From sequence record OW991346: 40,137 nucleotides of DNA; one strand, given 5' to 3'. Below, piece after piece: positions 1-40,137 of the stretch. The position numbers were made by a program, and so were the translations under genes. This stretch comes from Escherichia phage vB_Eco_Bam. How positions within the stretch are numbered: the first letter of the stretch is position 1; every line of letters starts with the position of its first letter. Under the pieces are notes generated by a model. The model was not told the origin of the DNA and did no database searches. It worked only from the letters and a program-made list of their open reading frames with translations.

Positions 1-2685
1 ATGATTAACTTTGATAACATTCAGCGTAATGACTTCTCTGATGTGAAGAACGCCATTATGCCATTCAACGTACTGGCTGATGCTTACGGTGAATATCTGG
101 CTGGTGAACAACTGCGTTTAGAGCATGAGTCCTACCAGATGGGCGAGGAACGTTTCATCAAGGCGTTCGAGTCTGCCTGTAAGCGTGGTGAACTCGGTGA
201 TTCTCTGGTGGCTCGCCCGTTACTGGAAACCTTGGTTCCTGCACTGAGTGAAGCAACTAAAGCATTCTTAGCTCAAGGTGGTCGTGGTCGTCCGCATGTG
301 TCTAAGCAATACCTGAGCCGTATTGACACCGACCTTGCTGCCTTTATCACCATCAAAGTTGTGCTGATGTCCTTGGGTTCTCCTGCGACAGGCAAAGTAA
401 ACAATCACGGTGCTGTTACTGGTGCTAACATGCAGTCAGTCTGTATGTCTATCTCCAAGGCTATCGAGGAGGAGTGCCGCTTCGGTCGCATTCGTGAAGA
501 AGAAGCACAGCATTTCAAGAATCGCGTTAAACCATCGCTGGATAAGCGCCAAGGTCTGCTGTACAAGCGTGAGTACATGAAGGCTGTTGAAGCTGGCATG
601 ATTGCTAAAGGCGAGTTGGATAGTCACTTTGAGGAGTGGCCGCGCGATGAAGCATACCATGTTGGTGTCAAGATGTTGGAGCTGCTGATTGAATCAACTG
701 GTCTGTGCGAGATTGTACGCAAGAACGCTGGTAATCCTAAGTTAGACCGCTACGAAGTGGAACTGACCGAAGAATACGCTGACAAGCTGACCTCTCGTGT
801 GTCTGCCTTGGCTGGTATCTCACCTGTTAAGCAACCTTGTGTAGTACCACCTAAGCCTTGGACTGGTATCATCGGCGGTGGCTATTGGGCAAAAGGTCGC
901 AAGCCTTTGCGTCTGATTCGTACCGGAACTAAACGCGCTCTGATGCGCTACAACGATGTGGATATGCCAGATGTGTACAAAGCTATCAACATCATTCAGA
1001 ACACCGCTTGGAAGGTCAATGCGGACGTGCTGAAGGTAGCTAACGAGATTGTCTACTGGAAGCATTGCCCTGTTGAAGACATCCCACAACTGGACAAGCT
1101 GGATAAACCTGTACGTCCTGAAGGTATTGATGAAGATGAAGCCCTGCTGAAGAAGTGGAAGAAGAACGCTGCGACCATCTACCGCAAGGAGAAAGCCCGT
1201 CAGTCTCGCCGCTTGTCTCTTGACTTCATGATGGCACAAGCTAACAAGTTCGCTCAGTACGATGCCATTTGGTTCCCGTACACAATGGACTGGCGCGGTC
1301 GTGTATATGCTGAGCCAATGTTTAACCCACAAGGTAACGACCTGACCAAAGGTCTGTTAACTTTCGCTAACGGCTGTGAGCTGGGTTCTGAAGGTGCTTA
1401 CTGGCTGGCGGTGCATGGCTCCAACTGTGCGGGTGTCGATAAAGTATCACTGGACGACCGCGTTAAGTGGGTGTACGAGAACGAAGAAAACATCTTGGCA
1501 TCCGCTGAGAACCCATTAGACTGCACTTGGTGGGCGGAACAAGACTCCCCATTCTGCTTCTTAGCATTCTGCTTCGAGTGGGCAGGGTACGTTAAGTCTG
1601 GCCGTAGTGAAGGCTATGTGTCTCACCTGCCACTGGCATTCGATGGTACTTGCTCCGGTCTGCAACACTTCTCTGCAATGCTGCGTGATGAAGTTGGTGG
1701 TGCTGCTGTTAACCTGCTGCCTGCTGACAAACCACAAGACATCTACGGTATTGTTGCCCAGAAAGTAAACGTCCTGTTGGAGCGTGACCTGTTGAACGGC
1801 ACCGAGGACAGCACCAAGATTGTTGTCGATAAGAAGACAGGTGAACAGATTGAGAAGTTTGTTCTGGGTACACGTAACGCTGCTAAACAATGGCTGCAAC
1901 ACGGTGTAAACCGTAGCGTAACCAAGCGTTCTGTGATGACTCTGGCATACGGTTCCAAGAAGTACGGCTTTGCCGAGCAAATCATGGAGGATACTTTACG
2001 TCCTGCCATTGATAAAGGCGAAGGTAATCAGTTCACTGCACCTAACCAAGCTGCAATGTATCTGGCTGGTCTTATCTGGGACTGTGTATCAACTACCGTA
2101 ATCGCTGCGGTACAAGCTATGGAATGGTTGCAGAAGTCCGCTGCTCTGATTAGTTCAGAAGTGCGAGACAAGAAGACCAAGGAGCTGTTAAAGCCTGCTC
2201 TGCCTATTCACTGGACTACTCCTAACGGGTTCCCTGTTTGGTCAGAGTACATGATTCAGGAGGAGAAGCGCATTGAAGCGACTCTGTTTGGTGAACTGCG
2301 TATCCGCAACACTATCAAGCTGCGTGATACCGCCAAGATTGACGCTCAAGCTCAGGCTTCTGGTATTGCACCTAACTTCATCCATAGCAACGATGCGTCT
2401 CACCTGCAAATGACCGCTGTGTACTGCCACGATGTGTACGGGATTGTTGACTTTGCATTCATCCACGACTCATTCGGTTGTCACGCTGGTAAAGCTCACC
2501 TGCTGTTCAAAGGTGTGCGTGAGACAATGGTTAAGACTTACAGTGAACACGATGTAATCGCTGAGTTCTATGAGCAATTCGCTGAGCAACTGCACGAGTC
2601 CCAACTGGACAAGATGCCAGCTCTTCCTGAGAAGGGTAACTTAGACCTGAACGAAATCCTGAAGTCACTGTACACTTTCAGTTAA
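1..2685 (+). CDS. gp1: DNA-directed RNA polymerase, single-subunit T7-type (gene 1)
   Basis: 894-aa ORF; N-terminus MINFDNIQRNDFSD and blocks such as WFPYTMDWRGRVYA, DGTCSGLQHFSAMLRDEVGG, FIHDSFG and the C-terminal LPEKGNLDLNEILKS match T7 RNAP (883 aa) along the whole length from memory. Window starts at its ATG. Confidence 0.97.
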   Translation: MINFDNIQRNDFSDVKNAIMPFNVLADAYGEYLAGEQLRLEHESYQMGEERFIKAFESACKRGELGDSLVARPLLETLVPALSEATKAFLAQGGRGRPHVSKQYLSRIDTDLAAFITIKVVLMSLGSPATGKVNNHGAVTGANMQSVCMSISKAIEEECRFGRIREEEAQHFKNRVKPSLDKRQGLLYKREYMKAVEAGMIAKGELDSHFEEWPRDEAYHVGVKMLELLIESTGLCEIVRKNAGNPKLDRYEVELTEEYADKLTSRVSALAGISPVKQPCVVPPKPWTGIIGGGYWAKGRKPLRLIRTGTKRALMRYNDVDMPDVYKAINIIQNTAWKVNADVLKVANEIVYWKHCPVEDIPQLDKLDKPVRPEGIDEDEALLKKWKKNAATIYRKEKARQSRRLSLDFMMAQANKFAQYDAIWFPYTMDWRGRVYAEPMFNPQGNDLTKGLLTFANGCELGSEGAYWLAVHGSNCAGVDKVSLDDRVKWVYENEENILASAENPLDCTWWAEQDSPFCFLAFCFEWAGYVKSGRSEGYVSHLPLAFDGTCSGLQHFSAMLRDEVGGAAVNLLPADKPQDIYGIVAQKVNVLLERDLLNGTEDSTKIVVDKKTGEQIEKFVLGTRNAAKQWLQHGVNRSVTKRSVMTLAYGSKKYGFAEQIMEDTLRPAIDKGEGNQFTAPNQAAMYLAGLIWDCVSTTVIAAVQAMEWLQKSAALISSEVRDKKTKELLKPALPIHWTTPNGFPVWSEYMIQEEKRIEATLFGELRIRNTIKLRDTAKIDAQAQASGIAPNFIHSNDASHLQMTAVYCHDVYGIVDFAFIHDSFGCHAGKAHLLFKGVRETMVKTYSEHDVIAEFYEQFAEQLHESQLDKMPALPEKGNLDLNEILKSLYTFS

Positions 2686-3303: not shown

Positions 3304-3325
3304 AATTAACACCCACTATTGGAAT
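3304..3325 (+). promoter_or_regulatory. phage RNAP promoter (AATTAACACCCACTATTGGAAT)
   Basis: Near-perfect match to the ~18-copy consensus AATTAACACCCACTATTGGAGA; first of a tandem pair. Confidence 0.7.
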
Positions 3326-3458
3326 ATAATGACAATAACACTAAGTCTATAAACATTAAGTCTATAACTTATTGTCTATACATTTTGTCTTATTGTTATA
3401 TTAATTATTTAACACCCACTATTGGAAACATTAAGTCTAAACACTAAGAGGAAACATT
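3326..3458 (+). other. candidate primary origin of replication (tandem promoters with AT-rich repeated element)
   Basis: AT-rich tract between and after two tandem phage promoters containing repeated TAAGTCTATAA / TTGTCTATACA motifs. T7's primary origin has the same architecture after gene 1. Confidence 0.4.
3407..3428 (+). promoter_or_regulatory. phage RNAP promoter (ATTTAACACCCACTATTGGAAA)
   Basis: Consensus match; 103 bp after the previous promoter; precedes the methyltransferase gene. Confidence 0.7.
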
Positions 3459-4282: not shown

Positions 4283-5254
4283 ATGTTTACAATCAATCCG
4301 GCAAAGCCAGTAGCGTACAAAGAGTCAGCGATTCAGAAAGCTCTGGACAAGTCCGGTTCCCTAATCGCAGACCGCAAGTACGATGGAGTCCGTTGCCACA
4401 TCGTGATTAAACCCACGGCTGACATCAATGGTCGTCCTGCTGCCCGTGCGTACTTCCTGAGTCGTACTAACAAGATGATTGCTGCCTTGCGTAGTGCTTG
4501 GTTGAGCAACGAGGAGCAGCTAGCCTTGGGTCAATTCCTGCAAGAGTCACGCTGGCCTGAAGGCATTGTGCTGGACGGGGAGGCGATGGTTAAAGGTATG
4601 GACTTCAATGCTTCTTCAGGTCGCCTGCGGTCAGACGCTCAGTTACCACTAAGTCAATTGACCTATGTGCTGTACGGTGTGTTGCCTGCTTCTGAGTTGG
4701 AAGCATCCGAGACTGCTGACTTGAGTCTGTCCAATGTGATGATTCAGGTTATCTCTCAAGTCACCATCCATCAGCTAAAGGAACTGCTGAAACCTATTGA
4801 CTGGCAACTGGCTGAGTCATGGGACGTGTACGACATGGAGCAAATCAATGAGCTGTTTGAAGAACAGTTATCATTAGGCCGTGAAGGTCTGGTACTTAAA
4901 GACCCTATGGCACCGTGGAAGCGCGGAAAGAAAACCGGATGGTGGAAGGTGAAGAACGAAGACACCATTGACGGTAATGTAGTTGGCGTAGTGTGGGGAA
5001 CTGAAGGCAAGGCCAATGAAGGCAAAGTGATTGGCTTCGAGGTCTTACTAGAGAATGGCGTTGTGGTGAATGCCTGTGGTCTGACTCAAGACCAGATGGT
5101 TCGATTCACTAGCAACATCAAGTTGAACCCTGATTACTACAAAGATTGGGCTGTTCAGGTTAAGTTCATGGAGCGTACACCTGATGGTTCACTGCGTCAC
5201 CCTAGCTTTGACTGCTGGCGTGGCATGGCTGGGCATGAAACGGAGAAAATGTAA
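4283..5254 (+). CDS. gp1.3: ATP-dependent DNA ligase (T7 gene 1.3-like)
   Basis: Ligase motif I KYDGVRC (adenylation lysine). ATG at 4283 follows RBS GGAGGT; the track ORF begins at an upstream TTG at 4268. Confidence 0.9.
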   Translation: MFTINPAKPVAYKESAIQKALDKSGSLIADRKYDGVRCHIVIKPTADINGRPAARAYFLSRTNKMIAALRSAWLSNEEQLALGQFLQESRWPEGIVLDGEAMVKGMDFNASSGRLRSDAQLPLSQLTYVLYGVLPASELEASETADLSLSNVMIQVISQVTIHQLKELLKPIDWQLAESWDVYDMEQINELFEEQLSLGREGLVLKDPMAPWKRGKKTGWWKVKNEDTIDGNVVGVVWGTEGKANEGKVIGFEVLLENGVVVNACGLTQDQMVRFTSNIKLNPDYYKDWAVQVKFMERTPDGSLRHPSFDCWRGMAGHETEKM

Positions 5255-5322
5255 TGACTGTAGCCGTTATGTTCTTGGTTGTCGTAGGTCTGAGTATTGC
5301 AGCCTATGTGTCATCTCATTAA
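5254..5322 (+). CDS. possible 22-aa hydrophobic peptide
   Basis: ATG overlaps the ligase stop (TAATG); GGAG 8 nt upstream; product MTVAVMFLVVVGLSIAAYVSSH is a single hydrophobic helix. Very short; speculative. Confidence 0.2.
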   Translation: MTVAVMFLVVVGLSIAAYVSSH

Positions 5323-5342
5323 TTATCACCCACTATTGGAGA
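5321..5342 (+). promoter_or_regulatory. phage RNAP promoter (AATTATCACCCACTATTGGAGA)
   Basis: One mismatch to consensus. Confidence 0.65.
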
Positions 5343-5347
5343 ACATC

Positions 5348-5467
5348 ATGTTTATTTCCTATTGTTCACTGCTTGGTGCATCCTGTGGGTCTGCTCACGA
5401 GACGAACACCGTTGCAAATACTGTGGCGCTCCTTACTCTGAGTGCTTCTGTAAACATTCCTAATTAA
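5348..5467 (+). CDS. possible 39-aa protein
   Basis: ATG immediately after the promoter at 5321-5342; product MFISYCSLLGASCGSAHETNTVANTVALLTLSASVNIPN. No clear RBS. Confidence 0.2.
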   Translation: MFISYCSLLGASCGSAHETNTVANTVALLTLSASVNIPN

Positions 5468-17235: not shown

Positions 17236-18840
17236 ATGGCTGAAGTTAAACGTGAAGGTCTAGCTGCTGAAGGTGCAGCCAAGACATATGAGCGTTTGAA
17301 GAATGACCGTAACGACTACGTGACCCGTGCAGAGGACTGTGCCAAGTACACCATTCCTAGTCTGTTCCCTAAGGATTCAGACGATGGTGGTACGAGTTAT
17401 ACGACTCCTTGGCAGTCCATTGGTGCTCGCGGTCTGAACAACATTAGCGCAAAGGTAAACCTAGCGTTGTTCCCTGTAGGTGCGCCTTTCTTCAAACTGA
17501 ATATCTCTGAGCTAGAGCTGAAGCAAATCATCACCGATTCGTCTGCACTTCAAGATGTAGCACAAGGTCTGTCGATGGTTGAGCGTATTGTTCTTAGCTA
17601 CATGGAGGCCAACGGTTATCGAACTTCTCTGGTTGAAGCTATTCGTCAACTCTTTGTTAGCGGTAACGTGCTGCTGTACGTGACCAATCCTGACGAGATG
17701 ATGGATGGTGAAATGGCTGGTCTGAAGGTCTACCGATTGCCGTCCTATGTAGTTGAACGAGATGGATTCGATAACGTCTTGCAGATTGTAGCAGTCGATA
17801 AGATTGCCCGCGTAGCGTTACCTGAAGACATCCAATCTGCTATCGCTGAGGAGACTACCGATGAAAACCTGACAGAAGAAGTCGAGATTTACACTCACAT
17901 CTACCGTAACTCTGAGACACAAATGTTCACAGTTTATCAGGAGATTGAGGGTGAAATCGTAGCTGGCTCTGAAGGTGAGTACCCATTGGATGCTTGCCCT
18001 TGGATTCCTGTACGTCTTATCAAGATGCCTAACGAGGACTATGGACGTTCGTTCGTAGAAGAATACCTCGGTGACTTGAAGTCATTGGAGGCTCTGTACG
18101 AGGCTATGATTAAGATGTCCATGATTGCCGCTAAGGTTCTGTTCATGGTTAACCCTAACGGACAGACTCAGGTTCGCCGTATGGCTAAGGCCAACACAGG
18201 TGACTTTGTAGCTGGTCGTAAGGAAGACATCGGAGTATTCCAGTTAGAGAAACAACAGGACTTCAACACAGCGAAGATTGTAGCTGACACCATTGAGGCT
18301 CGCTTGTCGTATGCCTTCATGTTGAACTCTGCGGTACAACGCGGTGGTGACCGTGTTACTGCTGAGGAGATTCGCTATGTGGCTGGTGAATTGGAGGACA
18401 CTCTGGGTGGTATCTATTCGTTACTGTCCCAAGAGTTACAGATGCCTTTAGTCCGCATCCTGTTGCGTGTACTGGAAGCTACCTCGAAGATTCCTAACTT
18501 GCCTAAGGAAGCTGTTGAACCTGCTGTTGCTACTGGTCTGGAAGCTCTGGGTCGTGGTCATGACCTTGACAAGCTGAATATGTTCGTTAACGGTATTGCT
18601 ACTCTGTCTGCAATCCAAGACGAAGACCTGAACATGCGTGACATTAAGATGCGCTACGCTAACTCTCTGGGTATGGACACTGCTGGTATGATTCTGACTC
18701 CTGAGGAGAAACAACAGAAGATGGCTGAAATGGCTCAACAACAGGCCATGATGCAAGGTGGTGCCGCTGCGGGTGGCGTAATGGGTCAAGCTGGTGGTCA
18801 AGCAATGGCTGAACAAGCTGCTCAGATGATGCAACAATAA
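17236..18840 (+). CDS. gp8: portal (head-to-tail connector) protein (T7 gp8-like)
   Basis: 534 aa (T7 gp8 is 536 aa); position immediately before scaffold and capsid; Gln/Ala/Gly-rich C-terminus. Confidence 0.95.
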   Translation: MAEVKREGLAAEGAAKTYERLKNDRNDYVTRAEDCAKYTIPSLFPKDSDDGGTSYTTPWQSIGARGLNNISAKVNLALFPVGAPFFKLNISELELKQIITDSSALQDVAQGLSMVERIVLSYMEANGYRTSLVEAIRQLFVSGNVLLYVTNPDEMMDGEMAGLKVYRLPSYVVERDGFDNVLQIVAVDKIARVALPEDIQSAIAEETTDENLTEEVEIYTHIYRNSETQMFTVYQEIEGEIVAGSEGEYPLDACPWIPVRLIKMPNEDYGRSFVEEYLGDLKSLEALYEAMIKMSMIAAKVLFMVNPNGQTQVRRMAKANTGDFVAGRKEDIGVFQLEKQQDFNTAKIVADTIEARLSYAFMLNSAVQRGGDRVTAEEIRYVAGELEDTLGGIYSLLSQELQMPLVRILLRVLEATSKIPNLPKEAVEPAVATGLEALGRGHDLDKLNMFVNGIATLSAIQDEDLNMRDIKMRYANSLGMDTAGMILTPEEKQQKMAEMAQQQAMMQGGAAAGGVMGQAGGQAMAEQAAQMMQQ

Positions 18841-18860
18841 TTAACACCCACTATTGGAGA
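18839..18860 (+). promoter_or_regulatory. phage RNAP promoter (AATTAACACCCACTATTGGAGA), copy 1 of a duplicated pair
   Basis: Exact consensus, overlapping the portal stop codon. Confidence 0.8.
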
Positions 18861-18965
18861 GTCAACAACAGGCCATGATGCAAGGTGGTGCCGCTGCGGG
18901 TGGCGTAATGGGTCAAGCTGGTGGTCAAGCAATGGCTGAACAAGCTGCTCAGATGATGCAACAAT

Positions 18966-18987
18966 AATTAACACCCACTATTGGAGA
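18966..18987 (+). promoter_or_regulatory. phage RNAP promoter (AATTAACACCCACTATTGGAGA), copy 2 of a duplicated pair
   Basis: Exact consensus, 127 bp downstream of copy 1 within a tandem duplication. Confidence 0.8.
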
Positions 18988-19034
18988 GATGAACAATTTG
19001 TCTCTCCTTAGTGATTAACTTAATGGAGGAAACA

Positions 19035-19934
19035 ATGCCATATTCACACCTGTCCGGTGCTATCGTAACGTCTGCACAAGAAGCTGAACACGCACAAGCT
19101 ATGCTGGAAATGCCTGTAGCTGTTCGTGATGGTGATGATGCTATTGTCATTCAAGAGGAAGAACCGAAAGAGACTCCGACTGAAGACACTCCGTCTGAGC
19201 CTGAGATTCTGGATTCAGTAAACATCAATACCGATGGGGAAGACGACCCTGAGGAACTTCCTGCTGAGGAAGAACAAAAGCAAACCCAACAAGAAGAAAC
19301 AGAGTTGGACTTCTCCAAGGCTGACCTGAAGTCTATTGACGATGTGTCTGCTGCAATGAAGACTGCTGAACAAGGCCGAGACGAGTTGATTAAATCTGCC
19401 GTTGAGAAAGGTCTGGACAGCTCCGTTGTAGACACCCTGACCGCTGAGTATGAGCGTGACGGTAAAATCTCTGAGGCTTCCTACAAAGCTCTGGAAGACA
19501 TCGGCTATGGTCGTTCGTTCATTGACTCCTTTATTGCTGGTCAGGAATTGATTGCCACTAAGTTTGTGCATTCAATCTATGACTACGCTGGTGGCAAGGA
19601 GAACTTTGAGAAACTGACAGCCTTTATCGGTCAGAACCATCCTAATGTTGCCGATGCGTTCAACGATGCGTTGGAACGTAATGACCCTGTGGTTATCAAG
19701 GCAATGTTGGACTCAGGTAAGGCTCTGTACACCAAACACTTTGGTAAGCAACCTGCTCGTAACTTGGCGAACCTCGCTAAGCCTACAGCAACAAGTCGCA
19801 CTAAAGGTGAGGTCGTACAGCCGTACACTGAGCGTGCTGAGATGATTAAAGACATGAGTGACCCACGTTACGCTAAGGACGCTAAGTTCCGCGCTAAGGT
19901 GGAAGCTCGTGTAGCCAAATCGTCTTTCTTCTGA
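19035..19934 (+). CDS. gp9: capsid assembly scaffolding protein (T7 gp9-like)
   Basis: Acidic protein; VAVRDGDDAI, IGYGRSFIDSFIAGQE and MIKDMSDPRY match T7 gp9. ATG 19035 follows RBS GGAGG; the track ORF starts at an upstream GTG (19011). Confidence 0.9.
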   Translation: MPYSHLSGAIVTSAQEAEHAQAMLEMPVAVRDGDDAIVIQEEEPKETPTEDTPSEPEILDSVNINTDGEDDPEELPAEEEQKQTQQEETELDFSKADLKSIDDVSAAMKTAEQGRDELIKSAVEKGLDSSVVDTLTAEYERDGKISEASYKALEDIGYGRSFIDSFIAGQELIATKFVHSIYDYAGGKENFEKLTAFIGQNHPNVADAFNDALERNDPVVIKAMLDSGKALYTKHFGKQPARNLANLAKPTATSRTKGEVVQPYTERAEMIKDMSDPRYAKDAKFRAKVEARVAKSSFF

Positions 19935-36941: not shown

Positions 36942-38694
36942 CAAAGACAAACTCATTCTAGCTCGCCTGAAGGCTGACTTTGTGGCGTTCCTCTTTGTCC
37001 TGTGGAAAGCGTTGAACCTTCCTAAGCCTACTCGGTGTCAAATCGACATGGCTAGAAAGCTCGCTGCTGGCTCTGAGAGACGTTTTATCCTTCAGGCATT
37101 TCGTGGTATTGGTAAGTCCTTTATCACCTGTGCGTTCGTTGTATGGAAGCTCTGGAACAATCCTCAGTTGAAGTTCATGATTGTGTCTGCTTCAAAGGAA
37201 CGTGCTGACGCTAACTCCATCTTTATCAAGCGTATCATTGACCTGTTACCGTTCTTGCATGAGCTGAAACCTAAGCCTAACCAACGTGACTCTGTAATCA
37301 GCTTTGATGTTGGTCTAGCGAAACCTGACCACTCTCCTTCAGTTAAGTCTGTTGGTATCACTGGTCAGTTGACTGGTAGCCGTGCTGACATCCTGATTGC
37401 GGACGACGTTGAGGTTCCTAACAACAGTTCCACACAGGCTGCTCGTGACCGCCTAGGTGAGCTTGTAAAGGAGTTTGACGCTATCTTGAAGCCTGAGGGT
37501 ACTATCATCTACCTTGGTACTCCACAATGCGAAATGACGCTGTACAGAGAGCTTGAGAACCGTGGTTACACTACTACCATCTGGCCTGCTCGTTATCCTA
37601 AAGACCGCAAAGACCTTGAGTCGTACGGCACACGCTTAGCTCCTATGCTTCTGGAAGACCTTGAGGAAAACCCTGAGGCCATGTGGTGGACACCTACTGA
37701 CCCTGTACGCTTCGATGATGAAGACCTGCGGGAACGTGAGTTGTCATATGGTAAGGCTGGCTTTGCGTTACAGTTCATGTTGAACCCTAACCTGAGTGAT
37801 GCCGAGAAGTATCCACTCAAGTGTCGTGACTTCATTGTGGCGGCTGTAGGTGATGACTTTGCGCCTTTGACCTACCAATGGCTACCTAACCACGAGAACC
37901 TAGCTGGGAACGTCCCTGCGGTGGGTTTGAAGGGAGACACATACCACTACTACCACGTAGCAGATAAGCGCACTGCGGCCTTCTCAGGCAAGATTCTGGC
38001 TATTGACCCTAGTGGTCGTGGTAAGGATGAAACAGGGTATGCTGTCTTGTACTTCCTCAATGGCTACATCTATGTGATGGCTATGGGTGGCTTCCGAGGT
38101 GGTTACGATGATGAAACCCTTGAGAAGCTAGCTAAGGTTGCCAAGCGATGGAAAGTCAATGAGGTTCTGGTGGAAGGTAACTTTGGTGACGGTATGTACC
38201 TCAAAGTGTTCTCTCCGGTACTGGCTCGTATTCATCCTTGTACGTTGACTGAGACTAAGAGTAAAGGTCAGAAGGAACAACGTATTGCTGATACCATCGA
38301 ACCTGTCTTAGGTGCTCACCGTATGGTTATCACTGAGGATGCAATTCGTCACGACTATCAGACTGCTCGTAATATTGATGGTCAGCATGACATTAAGTAT
38401 TGCTGCATGTATCAACTTACACGTCTGACTCGTGAACGCGGCGCATTGGCTCACGATGACCGTCTGGACGCATTGGCAATCGGGGTGGCATATTTCCTTG
38501 AGTCAATCGAGAAAGACGCTCAGAAAGGCGCTGAGGAGCTTACAGAGGAATGGTTGGAAGACCAACTCAATGCTGAACGCATCAGTGACCAACTGAGTGA
38601 CTACATTGTGCATCAAGGCGATGTGGAAATCCGAGTAGGTTACCAAAATGAGGACGCATATTGGGTCACTAACCTAGTTGGGTTTGACCGGTGA
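36922..38694 (+). CDS. gp19: terminase large subunit (T7 gp19-like)
   Basis: 590 aa; near-collinear with T7 gp19 ([81 protein letters not shown]). Confidence 0.97.
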
Positions 38695-38750: not shown

Positions 38751-38772
38751 AATTAACACCCACTATTGGAGT
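38751..38772 (+). promoter_or_regulatory. phage RNAP promoter after the last gene (phiOR analog)
   Basis: AATTAACACCCACTATTGGAGT; no ORF downstream; followed by a structured repeat region. Confidence 0.75.
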
Positions 38773-38782
38773 ATACGACAAT

Positions 38783-38863
38783 AAGAGGGAACATTAAGTC
38801 TATAGACACTAGGAGAGTCGACCTTAGAGTAGGCACTCAGTCTGACCTTAGTGTTCCCTCTTT
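38783..38863 (+). repeat. inverted repeat AAGAGGGAACA ... TGTTCCCTCTT flanking a 59-bp spacer
   Basis: Perfect 11-bp arms at 38783-38793 and 38853-38863; spacer contains palindrome GTCTATAGAC and direct repeat GACCTTAG(A/T)GT; directly after the last phage promoter. Confidence 0.7.
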
Positions 38864-39039
38864 GTCTTGGGAGTATTCTTCATTATTAGAATAACTCCCT
38901 TCTCTTTGTGTAGAGACACTGAGGCGTATCTTGGAGGTGATTGTATGAGGAAGACTACCCTTATGGTCACCTACTATGTGGTTAAAGTTACCTTCTTGGT
39001 TTACCTGTTGGTAACCCATGCTGGCGCTTAATCTCGGTA

Positions 39040-39510
39040 TCCTTATCAGTCTACCTACGATTAAGTGTCTAGTGTCAATACCCTTATGTTAGTGACCTTA
39101 TGTGTTAACCTTAGGGTAGGTTGGTCTTAGTGTCGCCTACCTTATGTTGTTAACACTATGTTAGTCCATTTTGTACAACACTAGAAAAATCTGAGTGACC
39201 ATCTCACATATCAAGACCCATTTAATCCCCCCCATAGGGGTCAAACCTTATGTCCATCCCTTATGTCATTCCCTAAGTCTATCATTTTGTCTATCAATAG
39301 GTTTTAACTCTCGGTTGAGGTGGGGACAATAGGTGGAGACTATGGGTTTGTATCTCTATGTCTCCCTATCTGTATAGACCTTGTGTCTCCTCTCTATGTC
39401 TCTACCCTTATGTCTCCTCTCTATGTTCTATCAACTAGGCAGCATCCTACCTTATGTTAGACCCTAGGTCAATAACCTTATGTCATAGACCCTATAAATA
39501 GACCTTATCT
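39040..39510 (+). repeat. array of ~12 short direct repeats (consensus CCTTATGT) in the genome-end region
   Basis: Motif recurs at irregular spacing, e.g. ACCCTTATGTTAGTGACCTTATGTG, CTACCTTATGTTG, AACCTTATGTCCATCCCTTATGTC, CTACCCTTATGTCTCC, CTACCTTATGTTAG, AACCTTATGTCATAG; includes a 27-bp imperfect tandem at 39379-39432. Confidence 0.7.
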
Positions 39511-39521
39511 ATATAGACCAT

Positions 39522-39543
39522 AATTAACACCCACTATTGAAGA
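39522..39543 (+). promoter_or_regulatory. phage promoter-like element with altered initiation region (phiOL analog?)
   Basis: AATTAACACCCACTATTGAAGA: recognition region perfect, +2 is A instead of G. Confidence 0.4.
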
Positions 39544-39574
39544 ACAACAATCTTAATTATTTTAATATTGAGTA

Positions 39575-39924: not shown

Positions 39925-40054
39925 TAGCTACGATAATCAAGCAACACTGCTGGTCTTGTTGTACTACGCAACTGCAAATGTAGTCGGGACGATGAAACTG
40001 CTATCCCTAAAGTTCTTTAACAATCTGGTATAAAGCGCATGTGTTGAGTTAGAA

Positions 40055-40100
40055 AGTGATTGACTCAAGGCTGCTGAATGTAGTAGCCTTTATGACAAGC
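40055..40100 (+). promoter_or_regulatory. RNase III-type processing site in the early leader (R0.3/R0.5 analog)
   Basis: ACTCAAGGCTGC-TGAATGTA-GTAGCCTTTATGA: same flanking consensus (ACTCAAGG...GGCCTTTATGA) with a divergent upper stem. Confidence 0.4.
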
Positions 40101-40137
40101 ATTTAATTTCAGCCACTATAAGATGGAGACAACAACA

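Follow-up and report, generated by a model that had tools for sequence, protein, structure and literature searches.

An exact internal tandem repeat of 127 nucleotides in the genome record of Escherichia phage vB_Eco_Bam is very probably an untrimmed assembler end overlap

Introduction

The largest k-mer size of the SPAdes assembler is 127. Contigs that SPAdes produces from phage genomes that are circular, or that close into a circle, have been reported to carry an artificial 127-bp overlap between their start and their end, which is equal in length to the k-mer and needs to be removed (PMC5923482, PMC8104045, PMC7372960). Such an overlap is exact and usually terminal, it is seen in phage genomes that assemble as circles, and the total length of the contig is the unique length plus 127 nucleotides. 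T7-like phages also possess genuine direct terminal repeats of about 150–250 bp (185 bp in the related Aeromonas phage JELG-KS1; PMC10974468). These are located at the physical ends of the genome, in the interval that separates the terminase gene from the early region, and their position is conserved between isolates. Tandem and promoter duplications are known in the T7 group as well. Genuine duplications usually arise between short direct repeats.

Here, we describe an exact 127-nt tandem repeat in the genome record of Escherichia phage vB_Eco_Bam (OW991346), a sequence of 40,137 nucleotides that was analysed over its whole length and is called the window from here on. The window is the genome of a T7-like coliphage (Studiervirinae, Autographiviridae) and is around 99.9% identical to the phages vB_Eco_Mak and vB_Eco_Titus. 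We conclude, with a probability of roughly 0.93, that the repeat is not a real feature but an untrimmed assembler end overlap, with no bearing on the biology of the phage.

The repeat shares with the end overlap of circular SPAdes contigs its exactness, its length of 127 nucleotides, the closing of a phage genome into a circle and a total equal to the unique length plus 127, and it behaves as such an overlap in every respect that could be examined. The usual terminal position is seen in Mak; the repeat of the window differs in being internal, and thereby mimics a biological duplication. Its internal position would result from re-opening of the sequence at the RNA polymerase ATG prior to trimming. 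The repeat also resembles the terminal repeats of T7-like phages, being a short exact direct repeat in a genome of around 40 kb; like it, these lead to circular closure of short-read assemblies. However, it is located at the border of the portal and scaffold genes, midway through the late region, and the 127-nt redundancy moves between Mak and the window. A true terminal repeat was considered as its identity and rejected, as the repeat is mid-genome and shifts between assemblies. With genuine duplications of the T7 group it has in common that the scaffold and capsid genes are preceded by two class III-like promoters. Unlike them, it has no counterpart in any close relative, it is seen in the sequence of a single record, and there are no short direct repeats at its junction.

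Results and Discussion

Genes and promoters around the repeat

The portal gene (head-to-tail connector, T7 gp8-like; PF12236) occupies positions 17236..18840 of the plus strand and encodes a protein of 534 amino acids. Its reading frame is intact and is left untouched by the 127-nt repeat. It is followed on the same strand by the scaffold or capsid assembly gene (T7 gp9-like; PF05396; 299 amino acids; 19035..19934). The start codon of the latter is annotated 12 nucleotides earlier in Titus than in Mak, at window positions 19023 and 19035, respectively.

A promoter for the phage RNA polymerase, AATTAACACCCACTATTGGAGAG (positions 18839–18861, plus strand), overlaps the end of the portal gene; by alignment to the T7/T3 promoter consensus, we take it to span positions −17 to +6. 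The window contains 14 occurrences of the promoter core TTAACACCCACTATTGGAG, all of them on the plus strand, versus 0 expected by chance. Neither promoter copy in the repeat is truncated: both extend from −17 to +6 and conform to the consensus of these 14 sites.

Extent and content of the repeat

The initial annotation had described an exact tandem duplication of 127 bp, comprising positions 18735–18861 and 18862–18988, and this is borne out by the sequence itself, by Tandem Repeats Finder and by a repeat search. Tandem Repeats Finder reports a repeat at positions 18735–18996 with a period of 127, 2.1 copies and a score of 510, while the repeat search pairs 18735–18861 with 18862–18988 at 100% identity and a spacing of 127. 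The repeat is maximal at this length, with mismatched flanking bases on either side (C18734 against G18861 before the unit and T18862 against A18989 after it). An exact match of 127 nucleotides within 40 kb cannot have arisen by chance.

The unit had been read as the last 34 or so codons of the portal gene, the stop codon and a full promoter, in agreement with the coordinates of the open reading frames and with the promoter search. It consists of the terminal 103 nucleotides of portal coding sequence (34 codons plus one nucleotide), the TAA stop codon (18838–18840) and the promoter AATTAACACCCACTATTGGAGAG. The coding fragment contained in the second copy had been called promoter-less; this was incorrect, because the promoter of the first copy sits directly upstream of it. 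Copy 1 (18735..18861, plus strand) carries the genuine end of the portal gene together with the genuine promoter that precedes the scaffold gene, and copy 2 (18862..18988, plus strand) is 100% identical to it. When either copy is removed, a portal-scaffold spacer of 67 nucleotides is obtained, as in all relatives.

The junction between the two copies reads GGAGAG/TCAACAAC, with the break at 18861/18862, exactly after promoter position +6. The novel sequence created there, in which CCCACTATTGGAGAG is followed directly by TCAACAACAGGCCAT (18847..18876, plus strand), was not recovered from any other sequence. The sequence flanking the junction was inspected for in-register microhomology, and none was found. 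The likeness between TGAACAA, which follows copy 2, and TCAACAA, with which the unit starts, was evaluated as a sign of recombination and rejected, the two being one base out of register.

Comparison with the near-identical phages Mak and Titus

When window positions 18400–19400 were used as a megablast query, the phages vB_Eco_Mak (OX001577.1, 40,137 bp) and vB_Eco_Titus (OX090892.1, 40,010 bp) were retrieved with 99.8% identity; the next relatives over this region are Aeromonas phages, at around 80% identity. The only matches to the exact portal protein in public assemblies are the Mak and Titus records. Mak, Bam and Titus have been named as probable isolates of one species in the paper on Aeromonas phage JELG-KS1 (PMC10974468). 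A literature search on Mak and Titus returned comparative mention only, without assembly methods.

Collinearity and copy number were assessed by whole-length blastn. The window is a rotation of Mak and of Titus, and the 127-nt unit is single in both genomes, which answers the question of one versus two copies in related phages that the initial annotation had raised. The portal-scaffold spacer measures 194 nucleotides in the window versus 67 nucleotides in Mak and Titus; in Mak, the portal gene ends at 19047 and the scaffold gene starts at 19115. Without one of the two copies, the window is 40,010 nucleotides long, which is the length of Titus and also that of Mak minus its end overlap. Mak, Titus and the collapsed window have 26 variable sites among the three of them and are otherwise collinear. 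Mak and Titus each differ from the window at no more than 21 other sites, and between the window and Titus there are 9 single-base differences and no irregularity besides the repeat.

The ends of the Mak record overlap exactly over 127 nucleotides, with positions 1–127 identical to positions 40011–40137. The counterpart of this overlap in the window (39932..40058, plus strand) is present as a single copy, just upstream of the RNA polymerase gene. Since the end overlap of Mak maps to a single-copy site of the window, the 127-nt redundancy is placed arbitrarily, at a different site in each assembly. The Titus record contains no 127-nt redundancy. Untrimmed 127-nt overlaps were thus generated and deposited by the same laboratory series.

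Some of the differences between the three isolates are unevenly distributed. Most of those specific to Mak (14 of 18, relative to the window and Titus) are crowded into window positions 5123–5349, around the promoter at 5323, whereas nearly no differences are found over the remainder of the 40 kb. The cluster has the appearance of a short recombined patch and not of point mutation. Single-base insertions and deletions between the isolates fall in or beside homopolymers, such as an extra C in the window around 39227 (39220–39235) and an extra A in Titus around 17150. These differences in homopolymer length are likely to be sequencing or consensus errors.

Independent assemblies and more distant relatives

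In Logan assemblies of 9 other public sequencing runs, contigs with a gene for the identical scaffold protein were identified. Ten Logan loci were compared in total, and eight contigs cover the region from the portal 3' end to the scaffold start (runs DRR848847, DRR848848, DRR848849, ERR1301877, ERR1301792, SRR24146894, SRR13517634 and SRR30016108). All eight spanning assemblies contain one copy of the 127-nt unit and are 97–99% identical to the window in this region. The portal-scaffold spacer is 67–68 nucleotides long in the five Logan contigs that contain the whole portal gene. A real tandem of 127 nucleotides would normally break a small-k assembly at its borders, but the Logan contigs run through the site unbroken. 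The junction 30-mer is absent from Mak, from Titus and from the ten Logan loci, eight of which span the site; the junction that a real duplication would leave is thus not present in the independent data.

In 80 more distant relatives from IMG/VR (portal protein 50–71% identical), the portal 3' end is free of tandem repeats. The repeats found there are confined to the normal pair of promoter/leader regions, which precede the scaffold and capsid genes at a distance of about 1 kb from each other. A 33-mer containing the junction between the copies has no match in IMG/VR, a collection without a close relative of the window. A 21-mer from the promoter also gave zero matches, in IMG/VR and in the JGI metagenomes; these collections therefore hold no close relative and are uninformative on the number of copies.

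Start and rotation of the record

The first three bases of the window (1..3, plus strand) are an ATG in the reading frame of the RNA polymerase gene, and the 894-amino acid product that starts from this first ATG is a valid RNA polymerase. Position 1 is located 15 nucleotides downstream of the RNA polymerase start annotated in Mak, which corresponds to window position 40123. A Shine-Dalgarno-like GGAGA for the gene is present at the opposite, 3' end of the window (40126–40130). As the window opens on the ATG and the ribosome-binding site is at its far end, the sequence must have been circularised and re-opened after assembly.

Five of the seven window-specific differences are located within the first 417 nucleotides of the RNA polymerase gene, at positions 102, 117, 186, 405 and 417. 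These substitutions are all synonymous and all to T. They may represent a patch of recombination or, alternatively, an oddity of consensus calling close to the start chosen for the record.

A look-up of the RNA polymerase of the window in public assemblies gave a metagenome contig with 98% identity, from a run other than that of the isolate itself. In a Logan contig from run SRR24146894 (SRR24146894_6766), a 98.2% identical relative, the RNA polymerase gene is immediately preceded by a gene for a T7-type protein kinase (PF27024, 247 amino acids, positions 172–915). The 2,685-nt polymerase gene of this contig has 42 nucleotide differences, all synonymous. The window is without the PF27024 kinase gene at the corresponding place (39,2xx–40,137); only its last 85 nucleotides before the polymerase gene align to the contig.

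Origin of the repeat

The proposed series of events would begin with the assembly of short reads from a T7-like phage by means of a de Bruijn graph at k = 127. In short-read data, the physical terminal repeat would collapse, so that the genome would close into a circle. The circular path would then be written out as a linear contig, the first 127 nucleotides of which are the same as the last 127. If this contig was circularised and re-opened at the start codon of the RNA polymerase gene with the overlap left untrimmed, its twin 127-nt ends would come to lie side by side in the interior of the record, at the arbitrary site where the contig had been cut. In general terms, a contig of the form O-X-O, where O is the 127-nt overlap, becomes ...X-O-O-X... 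when closed untrimmed, which is an exact internal tandem repeat.

In vB_Eco_Bam, the cut site would have happened to fall where the portal gene ends and the promoter that precedes the scaffold gene is located. The original contig would have had TCAACAACAGG as its first bases and CTATTGGAGAG as its last. Copy 1 (18735..18861) would correspond to one end of this contig and copy 2 (18862..18988) to the other, the latter being the redundant, untrimmed k = 127 overlap, and the junction of CCCACTATTGGAGAG and TCAACAACAGGCCAT would have been made when the contig end was joined to the contig start. We infer the use of SPAdes, or of a pipeline based on it, and a rotation carried out by hand or by a script without trimming. 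On the same grounds, the isolate's own genome presumably contains the unit only once.

What was found agrees with an origin of this kind. The repeat is exact and its length is that of the assembler k-mer (127), and the length of the window is the unique circular length plus k (40,010 + 127). The redundancy is absent at this site from independent assemblies of nearly the same sequence (Mak, Titus and the eight Logan assemblies), and the 127-nt overlap of Mak has another position. The start of the record at the RNA polymerase ATG reveals that it was rearranged after assembly. The initial annotation had offered two readings, a very recent duplication, possibly driven by dosage, or an assembly artefact at a repeat. 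The evidence speaks against the former, with one copy in every near-identical genome and independent assembly. It favours the latter as to the artefact, but not as to its kind: the signature is not that of a mis-assembly at a repeat, but that of a rotated, untrimmed k = 127 overlap between contig ends.

A real and very recent tandem duplication of 127 bp in this isolate, by slippage or unequal recombination, would place two promoters before the scaffold and capsid genes and might raise late transcription. T7-like phages do undergo tandem duplications, and the doubling of a late promoter is plausible in biological terms. Furthermore, the two promoters are complete (−17 to +6) and match the consensus, the portal reading frame remains intact, and perfect identity is what would be expected of a very young event. 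Nevertheless, we consider such a duplication very improbable, as its length would have to coincide both with a k-mer size of SPAdes and with the end overlap of Mak, and the window is exactly 40,010 + 127 nucleotides long. The junction lacks in-register microhomology, and the record that bears the repeat is demonstrably rotated. The repeat is also limited to one of three isolates that differ at 26 sites, with none in the eight assemblies or in the 80 relatives. For the position of the junction, exactly after promoter position +6, an untrimmed overlap offers only coincidence as an explanation. If the duplication were real, this position would hint at a template switch linked to transcription or to a primer, and the length of 127 would then equal the k-mer by coincidence only, a combination to which we attach just as small a chance.

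Slightly less probable still is another non-biological origin, be it an error in the manual merging of contigs, the overlap of another assembler or a duplication during preparation of the sequence. Any head-to-tail join of overlapping ends looks alike, but the exact length of 127 and the identical 127-nt overlap of Mak point specifically to an end overlap at k = 127, and apart from the 9 single-base differences the window displays no further irregularity when compared with Titus. Such an origin would lead to the same practical conclusion as a SPAdes overlap.

Taking the repeat as an untrimmed overlap, its relevance is one of data quality only. The record overstates the genome by 127 nucleotides, and its portal-scaffold spacer contains two spurious features, a second promoter and an open reading frame from the portal tail. 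Left uncorrected, the repeat could distort promoter counts, comparative maps and surveys of duplications. In the case of Mak, completeness tools would read the end overlap as a direct terminal repeat, and the genome is inflated from 40,010 to 40,137 bp. More generally, when a short-read assembly of a phage or plasmid contains in its interior an exact tandem repeat of 127 nucleotides (or of 55, 77, 99 or 141), this is a useful warning sign that rotation was done before trimming.

Probable location of the true terminal repeat

From the coordinates of Mak, the terminase gene ends at around position 38,568 of the window. Beyond it, promoters at 38753 and 39524 flank a non-coding region (around 38,800–39,545) that leads from the terminase gene to the early genes. 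The motif CCTTATGT is present 12 times in the window versus 1.2 times expected, with eight of the 12 occurrences between 39082 and 39483, and Tandem Repeats Finder detects short tandem repeats at 39379–39519. The region from around 38,800 to 39,520 is probably the concatemer junction and the site of the true terminal repeat. The latter has probably been collapsed by the assembly, and the record is probably not in its physical orientation. The corrected record should be 40,010 nucleotides plus the true terminal repeat.

Elsewhere in the window, a 15-nt tandem repeat (AACACTAAGTCTATA, 2.1 copies) is located at 3337–3367. In a self-blast, the sequence just upstream of it (3304–3338) is 91% similar to positions 38751–38784, which hold the promoter at 38753.
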